A DNA stretch of 64,000 nt, taken from the IMG/VR virus record IMGVR_UViG_3300017987_005501, one strand, 5' to 3'. Positions within the stretch are counted from its first letter, which is position 1. Every line of letters begins with the position of its first letter. The DNA is from a virus. Its lineage: Duplodnaviria > Caudoviricetes. Positions 16,390 through 60,722 of the stretch are shown piece by piece. The notes beneath the pieces are model-generated. The model did no database searches. It saw only the letters and a program-made list of their open reading frames with translations, and was not told the DNA's origin. The translations under genes were made by a program, and so were the position numbers.

Positions 16390-17241
16390 ATGAATTTAAG
16401 ATACTATGGTTTCCAGCCCGAAATTAAAGAATACGTTGATAATACGCTCCGCCCAGGGGTGTATAAGACAGAACTTCCCTATATAATTTCATTTATTGGG
16501 GAAGCTAACGTTTCAAAAGATGGTCTTTGTGACTTAGCCGACATCCATGGAAGCGAGGCTTTTATTGAAGGAAATATGCTTCATTTTATCGCAGAGTTCC
16601 CAGATAATATTTCGCCTCACGAAATGGTTTTATATCAAAGAAGATTTATTACTATTGTAAAACAAAAAATTGAGGGCTTAGGAGATATTAAACTAACACA
16701 AGGTGGGGACGATTTATATTATAAAGGAAGGAAACTAAGCGTATCAATTGTTGCTCCTTCGACTGTCGGCACCTATCTTATGCACGCAGCATTTAATATC
16801 ACAAACAAGTGTAAGCTTAACATCTCTTGGCTGGACGAATTCATAGATACGGATTATGAATCATTAGTTAACCTATCCTTGGATTTAATGGGACAATTTA
16901 AGAATGAACTAGATTCGATAAATTATGCTGTACATAAGGTTAAACCCATTTATCCAGATGGGCATTTCCTTAACCTAGAAAAAGCAATTGAAAACGCAAG
17001 TTTTAGAGTTTCTAATTTACAAAAGATCATCAGAGACTTATATAAGGAAGTTACCTCAACCTTGCCTTACGAAGAAAAGAAAGATAAAGCCTTGGAGCTT
17101 ATTAGTCTTTTTCCCCTAAATAAAACAGAGGAATTAAAAGAAGCTTTGTCCTGTTGTAATGATGATCGCCATTTAGTCGCTTTTGCAGAAGCACTAATTA
17201 TTAAGCTGCTAAGAGAATCAAAAATCGTCTCTAACTATTAA
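16390..17241 (+). CDS. DUF366-like protein (biotin/lipoate ligase-like fold) with C-terminal helical extension
   Basis: SFIGEANV, DLAD, MLHFIAEF, YQR, GDDLYYKGRKLSVSI and HAAFNI motifs. Start ATG 16390. Confidence 0.75.
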   Translation: MNLRYYGFQPEIKEYVDNTLRPGVYKTELPYIISFIGEANVSKDGLCDLADIHGSEAFIEGNMLHFIAEFPDNISPHEMVLYQRRFITIVKQKIEGLGDIKLTQGGDDLYYKGRKLSVSIVAPSTVGTYLMHAAFNITNKCKLNISWLDEFIDTDYESLVNLSLDLMGQFKNELDSINYAVHKVKPIYPDGHFLNLEKAIENASFRVSNLQKIIRDLYKEVTSTLPYEEKKDKALELISLFPLNKTEELKEALSCCNDDRHLVAFAEALIIKLLRESKIVSNY

Positions 17242-20828: not shown

Positions 20829-23800
20829 ATGCAGACATCGACAGCAGTAATCCAGGATTCCATATTCAGTACCCAAATGGCTTATGAAAATTGGATAAGC
20901 AAATACCGGTATAAACAAGAAAACCCAATCGATACTTTTAGAAGAGTTGCAAAAGAGTTAGCAAAAATAGAAGCTCCAGATAAAAGAGAATATTGGGAAG
21001 ATAAATTTTTCCATGCAATGGTTAAAGTGGAAAACGGAATAGCAGTCGGGCTAAAATGTACTCCTGGCGGAAGAATCACATCAAACGCAGGAGCGAAAGA
21101 TAAAAATAAGGGAGGAAAAGCAACCCTTTTTAATTGTTTTATTAATGGCCCCGTAACAAACGCAAATATTAATTATTCAAAGGATATCCAGAACGAAAAG
21201 GTAGCATTTAAACTTAAGACCTCCGATTCCCCGGATGACCTTAATAATATTTTTCTAACTATCCTAGAGCAAGCAAAAACACTTGCATCCGAAGGTGGTT
21301 ATGGAATTAATTTTGATTTTATTCGTCCTCGAGGTTCTGTTATTAAGGGAACGAAAATTAAGCATCCTGGAGTCTTATCCTATATGAATGTTTGGGATAC
21401 GGTTGCAGCGATGATTATCAAGGGGGATAACGATGGCTATGCTGATACCCTCAAAAATTATTTAACGGAAGAAGAACAAGAACGCTGGGAAGCGGAATTT
21501 GAAAACTTAAAGAGGGCACCTCGCAAAGGTGCTATGATGGGATGTTTAACCGTATCACACCCTGATATCGAAGAGTTTGTGCGTGCCAAACAAACTCCAG
21601 GAGTTTTGACAAAGTTTAACATCTCAGTTGTTGTAACAGATGAGTTTATGACAGCAGTTGCAGAAGACAACCTTTTCGAATTAAAATTTAATGGTAAAGT
21701 TTATAAAAGAATCAAAGCTCGCGACCTTTTTGACCTCATTATGAAAAGTACCTATAACCGGGCAGAACCAGGGATTCTTTTCTACGATAATATGCAGAGA
21801 AATAACCCGATTAGTTACCTAGGAAAGGTTAATGCAACGAACCCGTGTTTTACTGGGGAAATGCGTCTTCATACCAACAAAGGGCTTATAACATTTAAGC
21901 AGCTGCATGAGAATGGGAAGAAAAATATCGTTGTCGTAGACGAAAGAGTTTATGACGAAGGTAAAATCGATACTGAAAATTTAGGAACTTCCTTAAAAAG
22001 GGCATCGGAAGTTGTACTAACGGAGAAAAAAGCTAAAATTTTAAGGATTACAACTTTGGATGGCCGAGAACTTAGAGTTACCCCCTACCATAGATTCCCT
22101 ACCCTTACGGGATTTAAGGAAGCTAAAGACCTATCAATCAACGATCCTATTTATTTGCAATCGGAGGAGGGGCGATGGGGGAAAAAAGGATCCTTTGAGT
22201 ATGGGATTTTAGTGGGGCTACTTACTGGGGATGGCACTTTCTCCCAAGACATTGATTATAGAACTGAAAGTAATTATTCCTCGGACCGTGCAATTATTTC
22301 CTTATGGAACGAGGATACGGACACTATTAATCGGGTTCGGGGTTTCCTTAAAGTTCTGTTTAATAAGGAGTTGAAAGGAAATCTTAAAAAGAATGCTTCT
22401 ATTAATGGGTATTCAAGATTTAATTTCTCCTCAAATCTTCTTTACTCAAAAATTAAATTAGACCTGGATGAAGAAAATCCAAGACTTATTAAAGCTCGGG
22501 TTCCAGATTTCGTTTTCAAGGGAAGTCGCGAGATGATCGTGGGATACCTCCAAGGTTTATTTTATGCAGATGGTAGTGTGAATTTTAGCGATAAAAAAAG
22601 AGATTTAACACTTCGGCTTGCTCAAAGCAATAAAAAGCTTTTACAAGATGTCCAAAATTTACTTTCTAGTTTTGGCATTAACGCAAAGCTACGAAAAGCC
22701 CGAGACGAAAACGAAACAATGCTTCCTGATGGAAGAGGGGGTTATAAGGCATATTCCTGTAAAGCTAATTATGAGCTTATTCTAAATAGGTTTAACACCA
22801 TAAGGTTTAAGGAAAGAATTGGCTTATTCGGAAAAGCAAAAAATAAGAAATTAGATAATGCTTTACAAACATTCCAAAAAAACCCATATAAAGAAAAATT
22901 TGAAACGAAAATTATTTCAATCGAAGAAGATGGGGAAGAGGACGTTTATTGCCTAAACCAACCAGAAAACGAGTCCATTATTGTAAATGGAGTTTTAACT
23001 GGAAATTGCGGAGAGATTCCGGGAAATCCAACTATCTCAACAACTTGTTTATTAGGGAACTTAAACCTAACTGCCTATGTGAGAAAAGATAGAACATTCG
23101 ATTATGAGTCTTTTAAGGAAGACGTAAAAACATTTGCTAGGTTATTGGATAATGTAAATGATATTTCTTTTTTGCCTCTTTCAAGATATGAAAATGCTGT
23201 TAAGTCATTAAGGCAATATGGAATGGGTCTAAATGGTCTTGGTTCTGCCTTAATCATGATGGGAATCCCCTATAATTCCCCGGAAGGAATTGCTTTTGCC
23301 GAAGAATTGGCATATCTTAAAGAAAATATTACGATGCAAACCAGTGCCTTACTCGCAAAAGAAAAAGGCGCTTTTCCTTATTATTGTGAGGATTTTCTAG
23401 ATACGGATTATTTTAAGTCTGATAGGCTAACAAGCGAAACAAAGGCTTTAGTTAAAAAGTATGGAGTTAGAAACGCAAAAACAACAACGAACCCACCCAA
23501 TGGAAATACTTCCATTATCTGTGATATTGTCTCAAACGGAATTGAACCTGTGTTCATGCTTGAATACGAGCGATTTAGAATGGCGGACGACTGGCCAGAA
23601 GGATTAAATCTCGATAATGTTAAAACTTTACTGGATGAAATCAAGATTGGAGATGCTATTGCTTGGAGAGGAAAATATAAAGGATCTGAATATTATTTCG
23701 AGCCCCAAAATAGAGGTCTTTGTATTGTAGAACCAGTCCGAGACTATGGGTATCAGTGGGTTCTAGATAATTATCCAGACGACAAAAAGAAAAAGTACCT

Positions 23801-24581
23801 AGTAACAACAGAAAAATTAAAGGTTGAAGATCATATTAGTATGCAAGCTGCCGTTCAATATTATTGTAACCAGTCAATCTCAAAAACAATTAACCTTCCG
23901 AACGACTATAAATTTGAAAATTTTAAGAAAGTTTACGTTAAAGGTTGGGAGGCTGGATTATTGGGAGTTACAACCTATAGAGCGGGTACGATGGAAGCTG
24001 TTATCAAGGAAAAAGACAAGAAAGAAGAAGAAAAGGTTATGTGGGATAGTGTAAAACTTCCCAAGAAATTCCTAAATGGGGCAACACACGTAATTAAACG
24101 TGAAGGAATGAAATTTTATATTCATTTTTCTTTCCTCCCTGCGGATGTTGAGAATAAAAAACCTGTTGCAATCTGGATTAACTCTAACCATAAACCAAAA
24201 CACGAGTCGGCACAAACAAGAAAGATGATTAGTATTATCGCAGATTTATGTAAGGAAAAGGGAGTAAATCCAGATATTGTTGATCAGTACATGGAAAAAA
24301 TTATGAAAAATGATTTACATGTGCGTCTTGCTAAAATCGCGTCTCTTGCTTTAAGACATAACGTAACTCCTAAGGAGATTGTCGAAACATCTAGAGATAT
24401 CCCTAACTTAGACGTAACAACTTTAGTTTATGCCGTAAGAAAATTCCTTAGCGCACATATTAAAAATGGAACTCCAGTCCAAGATAAGGTTTGCGAAAAT
24501 AAAAAATGTAAATCAACAAACCTTATTTATGAGAGTGGCTGTATTAAATGTCTAGATTGTGGAACTTCCGGTTGCGATTAA
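20829..24581 (+). CDS. nrdJ: Class II (B12-dependent) ribonucleotide reductase with intein
   Basis: TPGGR, LFNC, EGGYG, RPRGS, HPDIEEF, KFNISV, NP/CGE, PNGNTS, SNGIEP and TTYRAG motifs, C-terminal Zn ribbon. No nrdB nearby. Confidence 0.88.
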   Translation: MQTSTAVIQDSIFSTQMAYENWISKYRYKQENPIDTFRRVAKELAKIEAPDKREYWEDKFFHAMVKVENGIAVGLKCTPGGRITSNAGAKDKNKGGKATLFNCFINGPVTNANINYSKDIQNEKVAFKLKTSDSPDDLNNIFLTILEQAKTLASEGGYGINFDFIRPRGSVIKGTKIKHPGVLSYMNVWDTVAAMIIKGDNDGYADTLKNYLTEEEQERWEAEFENLKRAPRKGAMMGCLTVSHPDIEEFVRAKQTPGVLTKFNISVVVTDEFMTAVAEDNLFELKFNGKVYKRIKARDLFDLIMKSTYNRAEPGILFYDNMQRNNPISYLGKVNATNPCFTGEMRLHTNKGLITFKQLHENGKKNIVVVDERVYDEGKIDTENLGTSLKRASEVVLTEKKAKILRITTLDGRELRVTPYHRFPTLTGFKEAKDLSINDPIYLQSEEGRWGKKGSFEYGILVGLLTGDGTFSQDIDYRTESNYSSDRAIISLWNEDTDTINRVRGFLKVLFNKELKGNLKKNASINGYSRFNFSSNLLYSKIKLDLDEENPRLIKARVPDFVFKGSREMIVGYLQGLFYADGSVNFSDKKRDLTLRLAQSNKKLLQDVQNLLSSFGINAKLRKARDENETMLPDGRGGYKAYSCKANYELILNRFNTIRFKERIGLFGKAKNKKLDNALQTFQKNPYKEKFETKIISIEEDGEEDVYCLNQPENESIIVNGVLTGNCGEIPGNPTISTTCLLGNLNLTAYVRKDRTFDYESFKEDVKTFARLLDNVNDISFLPLSRYENAVKSLRQYGMGLNGLGSALIMMGIPYNSPEGIAFAEELAYLKENITMQTSALLAKEKGAFPYYCEDFLDTDYFKSDRLTSETKALVKKYGVRNAKTTTNPPNGNTSIICDIVSNGIEPVFMLEYERFRMADDWPEGLNLDNVKTLLDEIKIGDAIAWRGKYKGSEYYFEPQNRGLCIVEPVRDYGYQWVLDNYPDDKKKKYLVTTEKLKVEDHISMQAAVQYYCNQSISKTINLPNDYKFENFKKVYVKGWEAGLLGVTTYRAGTMEAVIKEKDKKEEEKVMWDSVKLPKKFLNGATHVIKREGMKFYIHFSFLPADVENKKPVAIWINSNHKPKHESAQTRKMISIIADLCKEKGVNPDIVDQYMEKIMKNDLHVRLAKIASLALRHNVTPKEIVETSRDIPNLDVTTLVYAVRKFLSAHIKNGTPVQDKVCENKKCKSTNLIYESGCIKCLDCGTSGCD
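21846..23006 (+). mobile_element. 387-aa intein with LAGLIDADG homing endonuclease at the RNR active-site cysteine
   Basis: Starts CFTGE after NP, ends VLTGN before CGE. Endonuclease motifs VGLLTGDG and LQGLFYADG. Confidence 0.93.
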
Positions 24582-24631: not shown

Positions 24632-24689
24632 GCCTTTTTAAAAGTAATTTGAATTCCTCCTATTGTATTATTATAGAAAAGGGGGAAAA

Positions 24690-25508
24690 ATGCATAAGAA
24701 ATACGCAAAAGAAAACCTTCCTAGCTTTATAATTATTGGGGCACAGAAAGCGGGGACAACTTCTTTATATAACGATATAACACAACACCCAAAAATTTTT
24801 AGGGCGAAGGATAAGGAACCTTCTTATTTCAATGTTTTTTATGATAAAGGTCTAGACTGGTATAAGTCTTTTTTTAAAAATAGAAAACCAACAAAAGTTC
24901 CCGATATAAGAAATGGGGGGATCATGGATCCTCTTAGATATGGGAGCCGGGACCAAATTACAGGGGAAGCAACTCCTCTATATTTAACGGATGAAGTTCA
25001 AACAAGAATTAAAGACTTAATCCCTCACGTTAAAATAATAGCCCTCCTTAGAGACCCTATTAAAAGAGCTTGGTCCGGGTATCAACATAATAGATATTAT
25101 CGCCCGAAATCTGAAAATAGGGACTTTTTAACTGCGGTTTCCTGGGAACTTCCCGACACCTATTTAGAGGAAAAAAAGAATTTCAAGGGAAGAAAATTCC
25201 CCTATCTCTCAACGGGACTCTATGCCGAACATCTAAAAAGATGGTACCAAGTTTTCGATAAGGAACAAATCTTAGTTATTGACAGCGAGCGTTATTTTAA
25301 GAATAGGCTTAAATGTTGTCATCTAGTTCTCGAATTTTTAGGTCTCGAAAAATTTAATCCCATGATTGGGTTCCATCACATGAAGGGGAAGGGGCCTCAA
25401 ATAAATCAAGAAGACTATTTGAAATTAAAAAACTTTTATATAGAGGCTAATAAAGAATTAAAAACTCTTATTGGGGAATTTAGCTGGATGAAAAATTATG
25501 AACATTAA
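24690..25508 (+). CDS. PAPS-dependent sulfotransferase (heparan-sulfate O-sulfotransferase-like family)
   Basis: 5'-PSB IIGAQKAGTTSL, GEATPLY, 3'-PB LRDPIKRAWSGY. Confidence 0.88.
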   Translation: MHKKYAKENLPSFIIIGAQKAGTTSLYNDITQHPKIFRAKDKEPSYFNVFYDKGLDWYKSFFKNRKPTKVPDIRNGGIMDPLRYGSRDQITGEATPLYLTDEVQTRIKDLIPHVKIIALLRDPIKRAWSGYQHNRYYRPKSENRDFLTAVSWELPDTYLEEKKNFKGRKFPYLSTGLYAEHLKRWYQVFDKEQILVIDSERYFKNRLKCCHLVLEFLGLEKFNPMIGFHHMKGKGPQINQEDYLKLKNFYIEANKELKTLIGEFSWMKNYEH

Positions 25509-26196: not shown

Positions 26197-26564
26197 TGCC
26201 AAAAAATCTAATCTTGTTATATAAGGATTTAGACCTAGAGCTTTATTCAATAAAAGGGATTCCCAAAGATATAAAAAATGTTTCTTTAGATGCCCTTGCC
26301 TCCGTGGTAATTCGGCATTGCTCGTTTAGTTTAGGAGAAGATGCCCCGGAGTTATCAAATATAATAATAGCAGAAGACCCAACAAAAGAAGAAATTAAAG
26401 AGGTTCATAAAATTTATAAACAGATTTTACAAGTAAAAATAGATAGCGGATATCTCGCAGTAAATTTAAGCGGAAGGGAGTTTGACAGTGGAGAATCTTC
26501 TCACGAAAAAAGAAGCGAAACTATTAGCGAAAATCTACCGGAAAATGCCGGATTTGAGCCTTAG
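26196..26564 (+). CDS. Hypothetical protein
   Basis: 122 aa ORF with TAATG coupling. Confidence 0.55.
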   Translation: MPKNLILLYKDLDLELYSIKGIPKDIKNVSLDALASVVIRHCSFSLGEDAPELSNIIIAEDPTKEEIKEVHKIYKQILQVKIDSGYLAVNLSGREFDSGESSHEKRSETISENLPENAGFEP

Positions 26565-27090
26565 CTGCCCGGCAGAGGAAGGCACAAAGAAGATTCTTCA
26601 GCTTGGGGAAGAGGAAATTCCTCCATGTAAAAAACATTGCTGTAATAGCCAAATTTTATTAACTTTTATTGAGTTTGCTTATGCCTTTGACTACGTGAGG
26701 AACCTATTACAGAGTTATCCGGACATACTAAATGATATCTTGAATAGCTCAAATGAGCCCTATTGTATTTTCTTAAGCGACGAAAAACGTTGTTTAGTTT
26801 ACGAAGCTCGCCCCTATGCCTGTAGATGCTTTCACCGCACAGACTTAAAAAACCCAGATAAATGTGAAGTGAAACATCTTAATAAGACTGCAAAAAATAT
26901 CGATCGATTAAATAGGGCAGTTAAACAACAAACAAAAGAAGTCGTTAATCTTTTAGATAAGGGCACGAAAAAGAAGATTGGGACGAAAGAAATGATTTTA
27001 AACTATTCTTCCCCCCAGGTGCAGGCAACTTTTGAGGGGTGGATTGCTCTTTTGGGGAAGGTTATAGAGGAACAAAAAGAATGCAGCTAG
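26488..27090 (+). CDS. YkgJ-family cysteine-cluster (Fe-S/Zn) protein
   Basis: C...CKKHCC...CIFL...CLVYEARPYACRCF. Confidence 0.8.
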   Translation: MENLLTKKEAKLLAKIYRKMPDLSLSCPAEEGTKKILQLGEEEIPPCKKHCCNSQILLTFIEFAYAFDYVRNLLQSYPDILNDILNSSNEPYCIFLSDEKRCLVYEARPYACRCFHRTDLKNPDKCEVKHLNKTAKNIDRLNRAVKQQTKEVVNLLDKGTKKKIGTKEMILNYSSPQVQATFEGWIALLGKVIEEQKECS

Positions 27091-27605
27091 CCGACGAAGA
27101 TAAATTAAAAATAAAAAGTTCCCTTCTCTCCGAGGAAGAAATGCGAAGCCCTTTATTTAAGGGTTATATTAAAGAAATGCTCAAGGTTATGCAGGAGTTA
27201 TTCGCAACAGGAATTACTGCAAATCAAATTGGGTGGGCAAAAAAAGTTATTATAATCGGAGCAAAAGATCTCTCACGATATGACATCTTTATAAATGCCT
27301 CCTATAAACCAATTAAGAAACACGGGACTTATAATAGTATAGAAGGTTCTATTAGTTTCCCGAAGAAACAATTCTCTCTTACAAGATGGAATACAATTAA
27401 AGTAACTTATAGTGGAATCATTAATAATAGATGGCAAACTTTTTGTAAAAAATTTAGGCTTGAGAGCAATTTACAGCAGCTGATTGATTTAACAGATGGA
27501 ATCTCCTTAAAAAATAAAGGGTCCTATTTTGGAGAATACCTACCAGATATAGACATTCCAAGTAAAACGTATCTGAAATATTATGGGGAGGATTTAAATG
27601 GATGA
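27081..27605 (+). CDS. Peptide deformylase-fold protein lacking metal ligands
   Basis: GITANQIG (motif 1), FINA, EGSISFP (Cys replaced by Ser), QQLIDLTDGI (HExxH lost). Confidence 0.7.
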   Translation: MQLADEDKLKIKSSLLSEEEMRSPLFKGYIKEMLKVMQELFATGITANQIGWAKKVIIIGAKDLSRYDIFINASYKPIKKHGTYNSIEGSISFPKKQFSLTRWNTIKVTYSGIINNRWQTFCKKFRLESNLQQLIDLTDGISLKNKGSYFGEYLPDIDIPSKTYLKYYGEDLNG

Positions 27606-29761: not shown

Positions 29762-30010
29762 ATGGGAGAAATTCCACTTTTTGGCAAACAAAATGTTAGA
29801 ATAATTAAATTGGGAGACTTTGAAGTTGCCCTTCCAGAAAACGACTCGGCGTCTTTCCTGGTATTATTGATATCCTTAATCGAGCTCAATGACCCAAAAG
29901 TCAATAATGTTTTACTTAAGTGTGGTGTTTCCTTTAGCGACATTAAGGGAAAACAATATTTCCCAAGGGACGATACCAAATTACCGGAGGAGATAAATGG
30001 CAGCAATTAA
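29762..30010 (+). CDS. Hypothetical protein
   Basis: 82 aa ORF, RBS GGGGG. Confidence 0.5.
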   Translation: MGEIPLFGKQNVRIIKLGDFEVALPENDSASFLVLLISLIELNDPKVNNVLLKCGVSFSDIKGKQYFPRDDTKLPEEINGSN

Positions 30011-30857
30011 TGCATTTTATGTCGTTCCTGGAAATGGGGAAGCCAGAAAGGAATTCAAAGTTTTTAGGAAACTGAAAACTTTGGCAAAAAAAATCTCCAT
30101 ACAAACATCCCCTAAACAATATAAAAATTTTGGCTTCAGTCTTTTAAAAGATGATGGGTCAACTATATCACACCCCGATACGCTAGAAGACAATACAAAA
30201 CCTTTATCAAAGATCTGGGATGAGGACCTTAAAGATTTGGAGTTTGACGAAACTTTAAGAATCTTTTTATCTAAAACCTCTGAAAATTTACATAACGAAC
30301 CCTTTGTTTATAAAAGTATATACTCTATTGTTTTAGGAGACACAGCATACTTTGAACCTAAAGAAAATCCGAGTAAGGTTATTTCAGAAGAAGGTTTTTT
30401 AACTGGAATTTCAAAACTACGAGAGGAATCCCCGAGCGCGTCAGCTGACTTTAATATTATTTCGTTTGATGCTGACAAGCCAAATAGAATTGAGGTTTAC
30501 CGGGGACTACGGCCCTTAAACGTCATTTATAGTTTAGCCTGGGGATGTTTTATTTTCTCAAGTAACCATTCTAATAAACCTATTCTTGCAAAAGAGGATT
30601 TATTATCTCGCCAGCCTTTTCTCCCGCTTGACCTAGACCCATATAGTGCATATTTAATTACAGAAGATAAAATTCATCACGCTGACCAAAACTTGGAGTA
30701 TGGGGAGGATCTTTGTTGTGGAGAATTAAAAAGTGCTGTTAAAGCGAAAAAGTTACTTTTAGATTTTGACAATAAAAAGGTTTACCATCCAAATGACCTT
30801 TTGTACTACTCTTATTGCCCTTTTTGTGGTTTAGATATTAGGGACTTAATAGAATAG
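29997..30857 (+). CDS. Degenerate class II amidotransferase (Ntn)-fold protein lacking Cys1
   Basis: Aligns by eye to the GAT domain of Gat-QueC (KPNRIEVYRGLRPLNVIY...FIFSS vs SPDKLFLYRDFNPLTVLY...YIFAS). Starts MAAINAF. Confidence 0.5.
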   Translation: MAAINAFYVVPGNGEARKEFKVFRKLKTLAKKISIQTSPKQYKNFGFSLLKDDGSTISHPDTLEDNTKPLSKIWDEDLKDLEFDETLRIFLSKTSENLHNEPFVYKSIYSIVLGDTAYFEPKENPSKVISEEGFLTGISKLREESPSASADFNIISFDADKPNRIEVYRGLRPLNVIYSLAWGCFIFSSNHSNKPILAKEDLLSRQPFLPLDLDPYSAYLITEDKIHHADQNLEYGEDLCCGELKSAVKAKKLLLDFDNKKVYHPNDLLYYSYCPFCGLDIRDLIE

Positions 30858-30864
30858 AGGAAAA

Positions 30865-31377
30865 ATGAAACCTTTTGTATCCGACTGGAAACAATTTAAA
30901 ACAGACTGTAAAATTCTAGCCGACGAAATATTAAAAAACCCTATTAAAGATTTGCCAAAACCTAAAAGCATTTTAAGTCTTAATACGGGAGGGGCAGAAG
31001 TTGCAAAAGAGCTTAAAAAACTAATTCCTTCCATAAAAAAAGAATACTACCTTGAGGCTAATCCCGAGAAAATAATTCTTCCTCTTAAGTCCCCTGATAA
31101 GATTAAAGGCCCCGCTATTTTAGTTGCAGCTATACAAGATACGGGGAAAACTATAAGAAAGGCGTTGGAATATTTAGAAATAACATTCGAAAAATATGAC
31201 TTGGATATAACAATTGCCGTGTTATATGATAAATTAAGAAAAGATTTCGTAACTTACGTTTTGCCAACTTACTGTGGGGTAGGGTTTGCTATGGGGGAGA
31301 CCGTGTGGGTTAACTTCCCTTGGGAAACCTTTGATATAACCAACGAGGAGCAGGATGAACAGCAAAAAGAAATTTAA
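30865..31377 (+). CDS. Type I phosphoribosyltransferase (Gpt/Hpt-like) with altered PRPP loop
   Basis: LNTGGAEVA, LVAAIQDTGKT, WVNFPWE. Confidence 0.7.
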   Translation: MKPFVSDWKQFKTDCKILADEILKNPIKDLPKPKSILSLNTGGAEVAKELKKLIPSIKKEYYLEANPEKIILPLKSPDKIKGPAILVAAIQDTGKTIRKALEYLEITFEKYDLDITIAVLYDKLRKDFVTYVLPTYCGVGFAMGETVWVNFPWETFDITNEEQDEQQKEI

Positions 31378-32314
31378 AATTTTCTGCGGGAATGCGAATA
31401 AAACATTAGCGAGAGAAATTTGCGATGATTTAGGAATTTCCTTAGGTAAGTGTTTGGTTGACCGGTTTTCGGATGGGGAAGTTAGAGTTGAACTTTTAGA
31501 AAATGTTCGTGGACATGATATTTTTGTTGTTCAACCAACTCAACCTAAAGCAGAAAACATTATTGAGCTTATTCTCCTCCTTGACGCCCTAAAAAGGGCC
31601 TCAGCAAATTACATAACAGCAGTAATTCCTTATTTTGGATATGCACGGCAGGATAGAAAAGACAAAGGGAGAATCCCAATTAGTGCAAAGGCAATAGCAA
31701 AAACAATTCAGACCTTAGGAGCTGACCGGGTTCTTACTATGGATTTACATGCCTCCCAAATTCAAGGGTTCTTTGATATTCCGGTTGACCATATTTATGG
31801 ATCTTCTATTCTTGTACCCTATTTTAGAAATTTGCTTCGGGAGGAAGATCCAAAAAATTGGGCAATCTGCGCCCCAGACGCAGGTAGCATTAAAATGGCG
31901 CGAGCATATGCAAAACATCTTGATGTTAGTTTAGTTGCAATTGATAAAAGAAGAGAAAAGGTTAACCAATCTGAGGTTATGCATATTTTGGGGGACCCAG
32001 TTCAGGGCAAAAAAGTTATTATCATGGATGACATGATCGACACAGCGGGAACCATTGTTAATGCTGCCTACGCAGTTCATAATAAAGGGGCGAAAACGAT
32101 TTATGCAGCCTGTACTCATGGAATTTTAAGTGGTCCTGCTGTATCTCGGATAACAAAAAGCCCTATCTCTAAAATTATAACCTTAAATACCGTTCCCCAT
32201 GACTTTTCAAGCCTAAACGGAAGGGCAACCCAATTAAGTTCTGCCCGACTTTTTTCGGAGGCTATTAGTGGAATTTACCATGAAGAATCGGTTAGTAGCC
32301 TATTCCTTGATTAG
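31355..32314 (+). CDS. prs: Ribose-phosphate pyrophosphokinase
   Basis: FSDGE, PYFGYARQDRK, DLHASQIQGFF, PDAG, KRR, DDMIDTAGT, THGILS. Confidence 0.97.
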   Translation: MNSKKKFKIFCGNANKTLAREICDDLGISLGKCLVDRFSDGEVRVELLENVRGHDIFVVQPTQPKAENIIELILLLDALKRASANYITAVIPYFGYARQDRKDKGRIPISAKAIAKTIQTLGADRVLTMDLHASQIQGFFDIPVDHIYGSSILVPYFRNLLREEDPKNWAICAPDAGSIKMARAYAKHLDVSLVAIDKRREKVNQSEVMHILGDPVQGKKVIIMDDMIDTAGTIVNAAYAVHNKGAKTIYAACTHGILSGPAVSRITKSPISKIITLNTVPHDFSSLNGRATQLSSARLFSEAISGIYHEESVSSLFLD

Positions 32315-37480: not shown

Positions 37481-38536
37481 ATGAGAGTTTTCTTTTATCG
37501 GGAAAGCGTGAACGCATGTAGCTATTACCGATGTATTTTACCTCATAAATATTTAAGTCGGGATCCTGAAATAACTAGCAAAATATCGGACTCTTTAACC
37601 GAACAGGATATAGAAGAGTCCGATATTTTTATTTTTCAGAAGAAACACTCCAGCAACGACTTCGCTCTTCTTAATAAAATTAAAGCCTTTGGGAAAAAAA
37701 TCGTTTACGAAATCGATGATAATATTTTCGATGTTCCAATTTGGAATCCAAGCTATGCCGCCATTAACCAAATAAAAGCAAAAATTAAATATTTTATTGA
37801 AAAAGTAGATCTAGTTACGGTAACGTGCAAACATTTAAGGAAAGAGCTTTTAAGATTCAATAAAAATATTGCAGTTCTTCCTAATTCTTTAGACTTTGAA
37901 AAAATTGATAGGGGCGAAACTATAAAGCCCCAAATTCTTAATAAAAATCTCCAGCAGGTTGATTGGGAAGAATTGAAAGGTAAACTCAAGGGAAAAATTA
38001 TTATTGGTTGGTCTGGGTCCCCAACACACAAGGAAGACTTAAAAATAGTAACAAAACCTTTACTCCGGCTTCTATCTCAAAATAAAAATATTGTGCTTTT
38101 TATGGTTTTAGGGGCTATTAAGGAACTAGTCATAAGAAGCCCAGAAGACCAAATTTTCTGTGTTGGAGCAGTAAAATTAGAAGACTACTACGCACTACTC
38201 CGTACCTTAAATTGGGACATTGGATTAGCTCCTTTGGATTTTTCAAATTTTAATAATTCGAAAAGTAATTTAAAGATCTTGGAATATATGAGTCTTGGAA
38301 TTATCCCAGTCGCAACGAAAATAGAAAATTACGCAAATACTCTGGAAATTCGGTTTAATAATCTACTAATTAATGCTAATAATAAGTCCCTCTGGTTTGA
38401 TAAAATTAATGAATTAAGCCAGTCTAATTTAACTGTTTTGAGGGATAAAGTAATATCGTTTACAAAAGAAAATTACGACATTAAAAACAATATAGAACTC
38501 TGGAAAAGTACATATAGAAAACTCTTGGAAAGTTAA
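37481..38536 (+). CDS. GT-B fold glycosyltransferase (GT4-like)
   Basis: YYRCILP, VYEIDDN, IGWSGSPTH, DIGLAPL...FNNSKSNLKILEY...G. Confidence 0.85.
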   Translation: MRVFFYRESVNACSYYRCILPHKYLSRDPEITSKISDSLTEQDIEESDIFIFQKKHSSNDFALLNKIKAFGKKIVYEIDDNIFDVPIWNPSYAAINQIKAKIKYFIEKVDLVTVTCKHLRKELLRFNKNIAVLPNSLDFEKIDRGETIKPQILNKNLQQVDWEELKGKLKGKIIIGWSGSPTHKEDLKIVTKPLLRLLSQNKNIVLFMVLGAIKELVIRSPEDQIFCVGAVKLEDYYALLRTLNWDIGLAPLDFSNFNNSKSNLKILEYMSLGIIPVATKIENYANTLEIRFNNLLINANNKSLWFDKINELSQSNLTVLRDKVISFTKENYDIKNNIELWKSTYRKLLES

Positions 38537-59198: not shown

Positions 59199-60722
59199 AT
59201 GTTATCAAAAGAACAATTAGAAGAAGAGATTAAGTTAGGGTTAACAGACAAACAAATTGCAGAGAAATATAACATCCCAAAATTTAGAACGGTTAAAAAT
59301 CTTAGGAAAAAATATGGGATCGGGAAGAAGCAAGAAAAGATACCAAAAGCAGAACTTGCTGAAGATATTAAAAATTTATCTATAGACGAAATTGCTAAAA
59401 AACACTCAAGAACTCTGAAAAGAATTAAAGAGTTACTACGTGGGTACGAGATAGAATATGACATAAAAAATAAACCAGTTAGTTTTAGTGTTTCTGATAT
59501 TGAAAAGATTAAGGAATTAGTTGAGGCAGGCAAATCTGACGAAGAAATCGCTCTTTCATTTAATCTTCCAAAAACTAAATGGACTAGTATCCGTCATGTT
59601 CGTTTAAAGAAACTTAATATTAAAAAACGTGTTCCAAACAATACAGCGGATAAAGAAAAAATTCGAAAAGGCTTCGAATCAAAGAAATCGGATCAAGAAT
59701 TAGCGGGCGAATTAGGGGTAAAGGAAGGCACTATTGCCTCTGCTCGTCAAAAACTCGGCTTATTTGTCGAGCGAGATATTCATAAGGTAACAAAAACCGT
59801 TTTAGAAAAGTACTATGTTGAGTGGGGGTGGACAGACCAAGAAATTGCTGATTTTCTTGGAATAGAGCATAATAGGGTTTGGGAAGCTCGGAAAAAATAC
59901 AATATAAATCGGACAATGAAATGGCAGAAGCTAAATCTTCCCATTGATTTCACTAAGGAACAAAAAGATTTAGTTTATGGAAGTTTATTAGGAGATTCCT
60001 CCATTAGTAAAGTTGCGGCTTCTTCTTATGAACTTTTTTGTGCCCACGCAAATAAGCAAAAAAATTACACAAGACTAAAGGCTATAATTCTTGATAAGTT
60101 TGCAAGAAATTTTAAACATCGAAAACATGATGACATGTACGAAGTGAGATCCTACTCTCATCCATTAATTAAAGAACTTTATGATATCTACTACCCTAAT
60201 TCAACTGGAAACAAAAGAACAGTCTTCCCGGACGAAATATTAGACGAATTTACATTAGAAATGCTTGTCTATTGGTATTTTGATGATGGCTGGATCGAGA
60301 AATCTAATGAAGTTAAAAGAACTCCTGTGATTGGGTCCGCATTTGATTTCAACAATCAAAAACTGCTCATCGAAACTCTTTGGAAAAAATATAAACTAAA
60401 AATAGGATTTGAGCCAACAAAACAGACTCTCAAAACTCAAAAATACTTCTCAAAAATTAGACTTTATGTAAACTCAGATTTACTTGATATTATCAAAAAC
60501 CTAGCGCCTGAGTGTTTAGAATATAAAATCCCAGATGAAATACATCCACAAGCCGAACTTTCTGGGGATTTTGATCATATAGACGACCAAACAGGATATG
60601 AAAAACGAACTTGCCCTAAATGTGGGAACAAGTTCGTTATTGAATGGTACAAAGCTCAAAGATTCTGCTCAAGGACTTGCCAAAGTCGGTTTAATTATCA
60701 ACTTTCTCAAGAGTCCCTTTAA
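59199..60722 (+). mobile_element. Free-standing LAGLIDADG homing endonuclease with about 5 N-terminal HTH repeats and C-terminal Zn finger
   Basis: VYGSLLGDSS and LVYWYFDDG motifs; repeated (T/S)D.EIA HTH units; CPKCG...FCSRTCQ. Confidence 0.8.
60648..60693. repeat. 46-bp direct repeat copy 1 (copy 2 at 61405-61450, partial copy at 62752-62787)
   Basis: TACAAAGCTCAAAG(A/G)TTCTGCTCAAG(G/A)ACTTGCCAAAGTCGGTTTA, 2 mismatches. Confidence 0.95.

Follow-up and report, generated by a model that had tools for sequence, protein, structure and literature searches.

A long-form DUF366 protein in a phage deazaguanine gene cluster, a candidate QueC-coupled helper

The DNA analysed here, referred to as the window, is a stretch of 64,000 nucleotides (nt) from a virus of the Caudoviricetes (IMG/VR record IMGVR_UViG_3300017987_005501). 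It is phage-like, i.e., it carries a replication module, inteins and a gene for a capsid-like protein, and it has no tRNA. The subject is an open reading frame (ORF) within a co-oriented cluster that also encodes Gat-QueC, a fusion of a class-II glutamine amidotransferase with QueC, and a presumed DNA 7-deazaguanine transglycosylase of the TGT fold (TGT; Table 1). Its product of 283 amino acids (aa) is a phage long-form member of the family DUF366. A megablast search of the cluster against GenBank phages gave no match.

The gene and its product

The strand opposite the ORF is closed by many stop codons. The ATG lies 1 nt past the stop of an upstream gene for a DHH-family phosphoesterase, and the gap to the downstream TGT gene is 14 nt. 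An identical 283-aa product was called on 8 contigs, the places shown being a JGI metagenome and three sequencing runs. Thus, the gene and its length are real and no artefact of assembly.

Table 1. Coordinates of the DUF366 gene, of its neighbours in the window and of the tail-bearing genes in two related phages (L001, L002)
Feature	Position	Strand	Remarks
DUF366 ORF	16390-17241	+	ATG start, 283 aa plus stop
DUF366 core, residues 1-188	16390..16953	+	biotin/lipoate-ligase-like alpha/beta fold; Pfam, fold matches, invariant columns
Helical C-terminal bundle, residues ~189-283 plus stop codon	16954..17241	+	models, alignments
DUF6884-like protein, 176 aa	13146..13676	+	Pfam DUF6884 E 3.8e-4, under cut-off
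Gat-QueC, class-II glutamine amidotransferase + QueC, 492 aa	13686..15164	+	Pfam QueC 180.9 bits, GATase_6/7
DHH-family phosphoesterase, 406 aa	15168..16388	+	Pfam DHH E 1.1e-9
arcTGT-like transglycosylase, presumed DNA 7-deazaguanine transglycosylase, 518 aa	17256..18812	+	Pfam TGT E 2.7e-17
Tail-bearing pair (DUF6884-like; TGT), L001	5585-6124; 10864-12426		tails compared
Tail-bearing pair (DUF6884-like; TGT), L002	4076-4609; 7437-8996		tails compared

An initial interpretation drawn from the letters alone, here the sequence-only reading, had noted DUF366-like motifs, a transglycosylase as neighbour and a family of uncharacterised proteins. These three statements hold. Pfam DUF366 (PF04017) matches residues 31-185 at E 6.6e-29 (101.1 bits; cut-off, 29.9 bits), and all 17 family-invariant residues are kept in the phage protein (P0001); neither PHROGs nor NCBIfam contains a match. 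The literature searched does not mention DUF366, PF04017, COG2029 or IPR007162, and the terms 'DUF', 'biotin' and 'ligase' are all absent from a 2026 genome-mining preprint on 7-deazapurines. A sequence search of the PDB returned a sole solved relative, PH0223 of Pyrococcus horikoshii (2ddz_A, E 1.3e-5). PH0223 carries no assigned function, and it appeared in the literature searched solely in a two-hybrid table. A crystal structure of a DUF366 protein has been without explanation since 2007.

Fold, conserved residues and the C-terminal extension

An AlphaFold model was built from 25 homologs (mean pLDDT 89.1). Residues 1-188 form an alpha/beta core which superimposes on 2DDZ with VIA Z 22.9 and a root-mean-square deviation of 2.1 over 180 residues (Foldseek E 2e-12). 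In the ESM Atlas a DUF366 cluster was matched (TM 0.89 by target). Next in line are biotin protein ligases (BPL), LplA and LipB with Z 10-12.7 over 148-167 residues (Foldseek to BPLs, E ~3e-7), followed by proteins resembling class II aminoacyl-tRNA synthetases (Z 6-7.5). The biotin/lipoate ligase-like fold, named in the sequence-only reading, is borne out by these comparisons.

Conservation was examined by aligning 25 sequences from bacteria and phages, which share 26-47% identity with the query. Seventeen columns are invariant: Y15, G37, D48, E69, Q83, G106, D107, D108, Y110, K115, V118, S119, I120, H132, L148, E173 and K183. No cysteine is invariant in this alignment. The most conspicuous cluster is a hairpin motif, G106-D107-D108-x-Y110, followed by K115, the nearly invariant L116 and S117, and V118-S119-I120. 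The hairpin, GDDLY...(R/K)KLSVS, is similar to KWPND...K(L/I)xGIL of biotin ligases. The Asp and Lys of GDDLYYKGRK are separated by 7 residues, which is the spacing of D104 and K111 in Pyrococcus BPL (numbering from PDB entry titles). The sole hhalign alignment of DUF366 with BirA places GDDLY..KKLS onto KWPNDI..GRKVGGIL at a non-significant E of 0.068. Against LplA-like proteins the alignment is not meaningful (E 0.31), and the profile PF03099 (BPL_LplA_LipB) does not match at E <= 0.01.

Common to DUF366 and the PF03099 enzymes is the core fold; the equally spaced Asp...Lys of the beta-hairpin may be a further counterpart. What DUF366 lacks is the PF03099 sequence match, the C-terminal cap domain and the Arg/Gly-rich adenylate/biotin loop (GRGRxGR or RRxxGGG). 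Strands 31-40 and 60-71 of the phage protein are connected by a loop with the sequence VSKDGLCDLADIHGSE; in the family this loop has an acidic consensus (MVDxEDV) with an invariant D48. No acceptor protein is known for DUF366. The fold is ligase-like and so, it appears, is a portion of the catalytic machinery; ATP is at most a putative cosubstrate.

The phage protein and PH0223 belong to one family and share the fold and all family-invariant residues. They differ in two respects: the N-terminal motif of the phage clade reads YxxNTL, that of cellular forms YDGxQL, and a C-terminal helical domain (~95 aa) is present in addition in the phage protein. An extension of ~90 aa had been seen in the sequence-only reading, and the models agree. 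Residues 196-282 are helical in the full model (6 DSSP segments), and residues 186-283 modelled alone give five helices (pLDDT 80). The extension is missing from the cellular forms of ~185 aa, which consist of a single domain; the 283-aa product is therefore a variant architecture inside the DUF366 family. Searched alone against PDB representatives the extension retrieves generic helical bundles, the best at Z 6.7, the noise level for helical proteins, and in the ESM Atlas unspecific matches only. It is poorly conserved (19-24% identity), with G191, H192, E197, A252 and E267 as the only invariant residues.

When 1.84 billion representatives were searched exhaustively with phmmer, 231 relatives emerged. 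Only 5 of the representatives are long forms (P0001-P0004 and P0117). In all four loci with context the long-form gene directly precedes a TGT gene of 518-520 aa; one of the four is the locus of P0117, the fifth long form, with a 518-aa TGT directly downstream. A metagenome scan with a single DUF366 protein had no match, and a scan with the long-form alignment yielded L108, a copy of L004 and nothing else. Pfam TGT has no match in five other DUF366-bearing phage records. As far as context is available, the long form is limited to loci with a 518-520-aa TGT, and the clade is rare.

DUF366 in cellular preQ0 operons

The preQ0 pathway, consisting of FolE, QueD, QueE and QueC, is treated as complete. 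In many anaerobic bacteria DUF366 is a fifth gene embedded in its operon. We sampled the best 80 genome loci of at least 565 matches; neighbours were clustered and the clusters named by Pfam. The loci are mostly from Bacillota of the Peptococcaceae/Desulfotomaculia type, with some Chloroflexia, Planctomycetota and deltaproteobacterial metagenome-assembled genomes. The recurrent gene order is queD-queC-DUF366-queE-folE(-surE). Around the 77 DUF366 ORFs of the sampled loci, nearly all of them genome loci, QueE is encoded 75 times, QueD 70 times, QueC 69 times and FolE 61 times. Proximity to que genes had been stated in the sequence-only reading together with a call for neighbourhood statistics, and the counts agree with it. 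The same gene order is present on an unrelated 159-kb contig (L003) where DUF366 is inserted exactly between queC and queE with 1-nt overlaps.

A fusion protein of 438 aa among the phmmer relatives combines QueC (residues 17-230) and DUF366 (residues 257-435) in one chain. The identical sequence is found in three independent assemblies, in the context tgt-yajC-secDF-recJ-queD-[fusion]-queE. This fusion is the strongest single argument for DUF366 working with QueC, and it indicates a role at the QueC step, not in decoration. Other fusions were also seen: Clp_N is N-terminal to DUF366 in four clusters (P0112-P0115), one such gene being followed by QueE (L119, 8001-9047); further partners are SPOR and a partial aminotransferase, the latter probably an artefact.

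Co-occurrence was examined in the class of Desulfosporosinus, with 112 species genomes of which 49 possess DUF366 and 63 do not. QueC is encoded in 48 of the 49 DUF366-positive and in 36 of the 63 DUF366-negative genomes (Fisher p = 1.4e-7, not corrected for phylogeny). Among 14 control genomes DUF366 is encoded only in Methanocaldococcus jannaschii and Methanosarcina acetivorans. We consider it likely that DUF366 is a pathway component coupled to QueC. Its presence in the operon of many anaerobic bacteria, in methanogens, in the QueC fusion and in at least five phage groups indicates that the textbook pathway is incomplete, at any rate in organisms other than E. coli and B. subtilis.

A different role may be considered, downstream of preQ0: in organisms and phages without QueF, DUF366 might take part in an alternative route to preQ1 or to some other product derived from preQ0. 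QueF is encoded in none of the 49 DUF366-positive genomes compared with 19 of the 63 negative ones (Fisher p = 4.9e-6, uncorrected), nearly all of these genomes have QueA, and DUF366 occupies the slot held by queF in the queCDEF operon of B. subtilis. Of five genomes checked, four DUF366-positive Bacillota have QueA and TGT and are without QueF. However, 26 QueC-positive genomes of the class are devoid of both QueF and DUF366, 91 of the 110 QueA-positive genomes have no QueF, and one Chloroflexia genome possesses both DUF366 and QueF. Further, preQ1 is not required in the DUF366-bearing methanogens, a site for a redox cofactor is missing from the fold, and none of the invariant residues of the family is a cysteine. 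A role after preQ0 is thus highly improbable. In particular, DUF366 as a specific replacement of QueF was rejected: the QueF gap is general in this class.

Apart from DUF366, QueA is encoded in 110 of the 112 genomes of the class and QueF in 19; a full preQ0 operon is present in 65 (48 DUF366-positive, 17 DUF366-negative). An unknown route from preQ0 to preQ1, or salvage, seems to be widespread in these bacteria.

A compensation of variant QueCs by DUF366 was likewise considered and rejected, since both QueC motif types occur with DUF366. The motif is FPDN(S/T) in the bacterial DUF366-adjacent copies, in the fusion and in all phage Gat-QueCs, in place of the canonical YPDCR. The YPDCR type occurs together with DUF366 in Heliobacterium and in the phage loci L004, L005 and L011.

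The phage module and the role of DUF366

According to tblastn, DUF366 is not encoded in any of 50,697 GenBank phage records. At least five groups of uncultured phages carry it in deazaguanine clusters. The arrangements differ: QueD-FolE2-RNaseHII-QueE-PRTase-QueC-DUF366 in L005 and L011 (PRTase, phosphoribosyltransferase); DUF366-QueC in L004 and L108; FolE2-x-x-DUF366-Gat-QueC in L007, a complete genome of 141 kb with terminal repeats; and QueE-AAA-x-x-[414-aa protein]-DUF366 in L008-L010 and L012. The 414-aa protein has a faint match to DUF6610, the Pfam family that the DpdA4 transglycosylase homolog of Halovirus HVTV-1 matches (PMC10516641), and is a candidate transglycosylase of the DpdA4 type.

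The module of the window is shared, as established by tblastn, with L001 and L002. It comprises the DUF6884-like protein (49-54% identity between the window and these relatives), Gat-QueC (47-50%), a variable slot, the long-form DUF366 (38-55%) and the TGT (60-62%). The variable slot between Gat-QueC and DUF366 is occupied by the DHH gene in the window and by other small ORFs in L001 and L002. Gat-QueC retains the PP-loop and the Zn cysteines, its QueC domain has the motif FPDNTT, and it matches TIGR00364 with 150.7 bits. Full-length homologs, ~31% identical, are encoded in 165 GenBank phages including the 9g-like ones. The TGT has archaeosine TGT 1iq8 as nearest solved structure (E 4e-12) and scores 66.7 bits with TIGR00432 TgtA, under the cut-off; it has no tblastn match among the GenBank phage records and no PHROG. 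The look-alikes of the 176-aa protein in the ESM Atlas are DUF6884 clusters.

The cluster resembles the system of phage 9g, which consists of FolE, QueD, QueE, Gat-QueC and DpdA. Both combine Gat-QueC with a TGT-fold enzyme in one co-oriented cluster, the combination which marks Gat-QueC/DpdA modification systems, and the cluster is located inside the replication module. Unlike the 9g type the window cluster adds DUF366 and the DUF6884-like protein, and its transglycosylase is arcTGT-like and 518 aa long. Further, QueD, QueE, FolE and FolE2 were not found in the window plus ~18 kb of flanks (~82 kb in total); the phage genome is larger, as contigs of up to 283 kb carry its Gat-QueC, and an absence of QueD, QueE and FolE from the whole genome is therefore not established. 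For 9g it was demonstrated that Gat-QueC and DpdA suffice for dG+ formation in E. coli from host intermediates; dG+ was formed in a queC deletion strain and not in a queD deletion strain (PMC6884629). In the window the cluster apparently contains only Gat-QueC, DUF366 and the transglycosylase of the relevant genes. This narrows the step at which DUF366 can act: with QueD, QueE, FolE and FolE2 not found in the ~82 kb, DUF366 would act at or after the QueC step. The phage copy could help to assign a function to the whole DUF366 family.

We propose that DUF366 is a QueC-coupled helper which acts on a carboxylated intermediate, and that the helical domain of the long form docks it to its dedicated TGT. 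Our estimate of the probability of this reading is about 0.55. Carboxy-deazaguanine (CDG), possibly together with ATP, would be bound in the ligase-like pocket, to which the beta-hairpin contributes two invariant residues, Asp108 and Lys115. DUF366 would then either pre-activate CDG or present it to (Gat-)QueC and pass on the product. The helical C-terminal domain probably docks DUF366 to the 518-520-aa TGT or to another partner of the module, and such docking would channel the base from Gat-QueC into DNA. Binding or activation of CDG as the specific mechanism is put forward tentatively. We infer that DUF366 assists a Gat-QueC plus transglycosylase system for DNA modification, itself of a known kind, and is not a tailoring ligase peculiar to phages.

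Several points weigh against this proposal. E. coli and B. subtilis, both among the control genomes, are devoid of DUF366, and Gat-QueC systems of the 9g type work without it. Thus, the known chemistry can do without DUF366, which would be either an accessory or responsible for an extra step so far unseen. Heliobacteria and Chloroflexia keep DUF366 next to QueE or QueD with QueC elsewhere. The sample is dominated by related Bacillota, and fewer independent events underlie the counts given above than these suggest. The similarity to BirA in hhalign lacks significance, and an acidic VDxED loop in the region equivalent to GRGRxGR makes ATP binding in the manner of the ligases doubtful. The probable docking role of the C-terminal domain is drawn solely from the co-occurrence in 4 loci. 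A prediction of a complex of Gat-QueC and DUF366 scored 0.00, which allows no verdict either way and was not used as evidence.

Some of these observations would suit a non-catalytic protein. A degenerate ligase fold, comparable to HisZ in relation to HisG, might keep CDG or preQ0 bound and connect QueE, QueC and the transglycosylase with one another. Regulatory subunits resembling class II synthetases such as HisZ are among the fold matches (Z ~7), and the adenylate loop is lost. DUF366 is located precisely between queC and queE in L003; in some lineages it adjoins QueE or QueD with no QueC alongside, and in two phage groups it adjoins transglycosylases of two different families. The fusions to protein-binding Clp_N domains in four clusters fit as well, as does the channelling of the Gat-QueC product to DpdA inferred in the work on phage 9g (PMC6884629). 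Yet the 17 invariant residues, mostly polar or charged and including the Asp/Lys pair, resemble an active site rather than a docking surface. A purely scaffolding role is rather unlikely, and equally so that intermediates, perhaps also the ammonia released by QueE, are channelled by it instead of being released.

The sequence-only reading had proposed a phage ATP-dependent amide ligase which adds an amine or an amino acid. As formulated now, DUF366, or at least its long-form clade, would activate CDG by adenylation of its carboxyl group; an amine, an amino acid or an aminomethyl base in DNA would be the acceptor, and the result would be a new 7-deazaguanine hypermodification of DNA. That amides of CDG are formed in this pathway is real: the QueC homolog Cap9 joins CDG to the N-terminal amine of a protein, i.e., ammonia is not the only amine to which ATP-activated CDG can be coupled, and QueC-type enzymes such as Cap9/QatC operate in obligate complexes with partner proteins (bioRxiv 10.1101/2025.09.03.674047). 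However, the catalyst there has the QueC fold and known conjugations of CDG with amines are carried out by enzymes of the QueC family (bioRxiv 10.1101/2025.09.03.674047). The ligase-like fold of DUF366 is not related to QueC, and nothing marks DUF366 as a substrate or as a conjugating enzyme. The fold itself and the conserved Asp/Lys hairpin would suit a ligase, the missing Arg/Gly-rich loop would not. The divergent N-terminal motif and the extra domain set the phage clade apart from the cellular forms, glycosyltransferases accompany the module in L001 and L002 with a second TGT in L001, and a pyrophosphatase-like DHH gene is directly upstream in the window phage. This DHH gene is missing from L001 and L002, and no candidate for supplying an amine is conserved in the module. 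DUF366 with the same invariant residues is a core member of the preQ0 operon in cells whose end products are ordinary queuosine or archaeosine, and it occurs as a fusion to QueC. It is therefore improbable that the family in general works as a decorating ligase peculiar to phages; as stated the claim is not supported, and we consider amide ligation by DUF366 quite unlikely. Slightly less likely still is the most far-reaching version in which the long form has acquired a new role next to its dedicated arcTGT-like partner and activates the carboxyl group of CDG, or carboxy-deazaguanine already bound in DNA, and joins an amine to give an undescribed amide-linked 7-deazaguanine, the family then being a second, QueC-independent class of CDG-activating enzymes. 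If DUF366 did change the product, the outcome would be a new DNA modification with relevance to restriction evasion. The role we favour is that of the QueC-coupled helper.

Several features of the neighbouring genes deserve mention. The nearest NCBIfam models of the DHH gene are Mn-dependent inorganic pyrophosphatases (NF003877, E 2e-9, 37 bits versus a cut-off of 283), and tblastn found no homolog in L001 or L002. A pyrophosphatase at this position would pull adenylation reactions which release pyrophosphate forward. The TGT of the window ends with a basic stretch and an acidic-hydrophobic tail (...FEDDLL). Such tails are present in all three phages, EVEDDLL, EIDLFE and EEEDLI in the DUF6884-like proteins, FEDDLL, EEIDLF and EELDLL in the TGTs. 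Conceivable targets of the shared motif are the beta-clamp of the phage (6837-8072) or some partner common to both proteins, e.g., the helical domain of DUF366. Glycosyltransferases are encoded just downstream of the module in L001 (12956-18466) and L002 (8993-11001); the second TGT of L001 has 424 aa and is 31% identical to the first. The window has no glycosyltransferase at this place and carries a GT1-like gene at 37481-38536.

Clear PRTase genes reside inside the deazaguanine clusters of L005 (8413-8880), L011 (8741-9220) and L006 (6702-7181). In the window a PRTase-like gene with a weak Pfam match is followed by a gene for phosphoribosyl pyrophosphate synthetase (29997-32314). This hints at nucleotide formation from a deazaguanine base as a further activity of some DUF366 phages. 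On two unrelated contigs a stand-alone HGD-D protein (PF06050, similar to 2-hydroxyacyl-CoA dehydratase/benzoyl-CoA reductase) adjoins the que/DUF366 genes (L003, 7961-8932; L119, 9808-10800).

Elsewhere in the window a CxxCxxCC protein of the YkgJ type (PF03692, marginal score; 26482-27090) overlaps a peptide deformylase homolog (27039-27605); it has no tblastn match in GenBank phages. The E. coli homolog of the preQ1 methyltransferase DpdM is said to be YkgJ. RecA (1-1344) and the large subunit of ribonucleotide reductase (20829-24581) contain one intein each. A LAGLIDADG domain is recognisable in the reductase intein within the window and likewise in the complete RecA of the JGI contig L120; a free-standing LAGLIDADG gene is located at 59199-60722. 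Directly after the ribonucleotide reductase a protein with a sulfotransferase domain is encoded (PF00685, E 5e-18; 24663-25508), which is unusual for a phage replication module.

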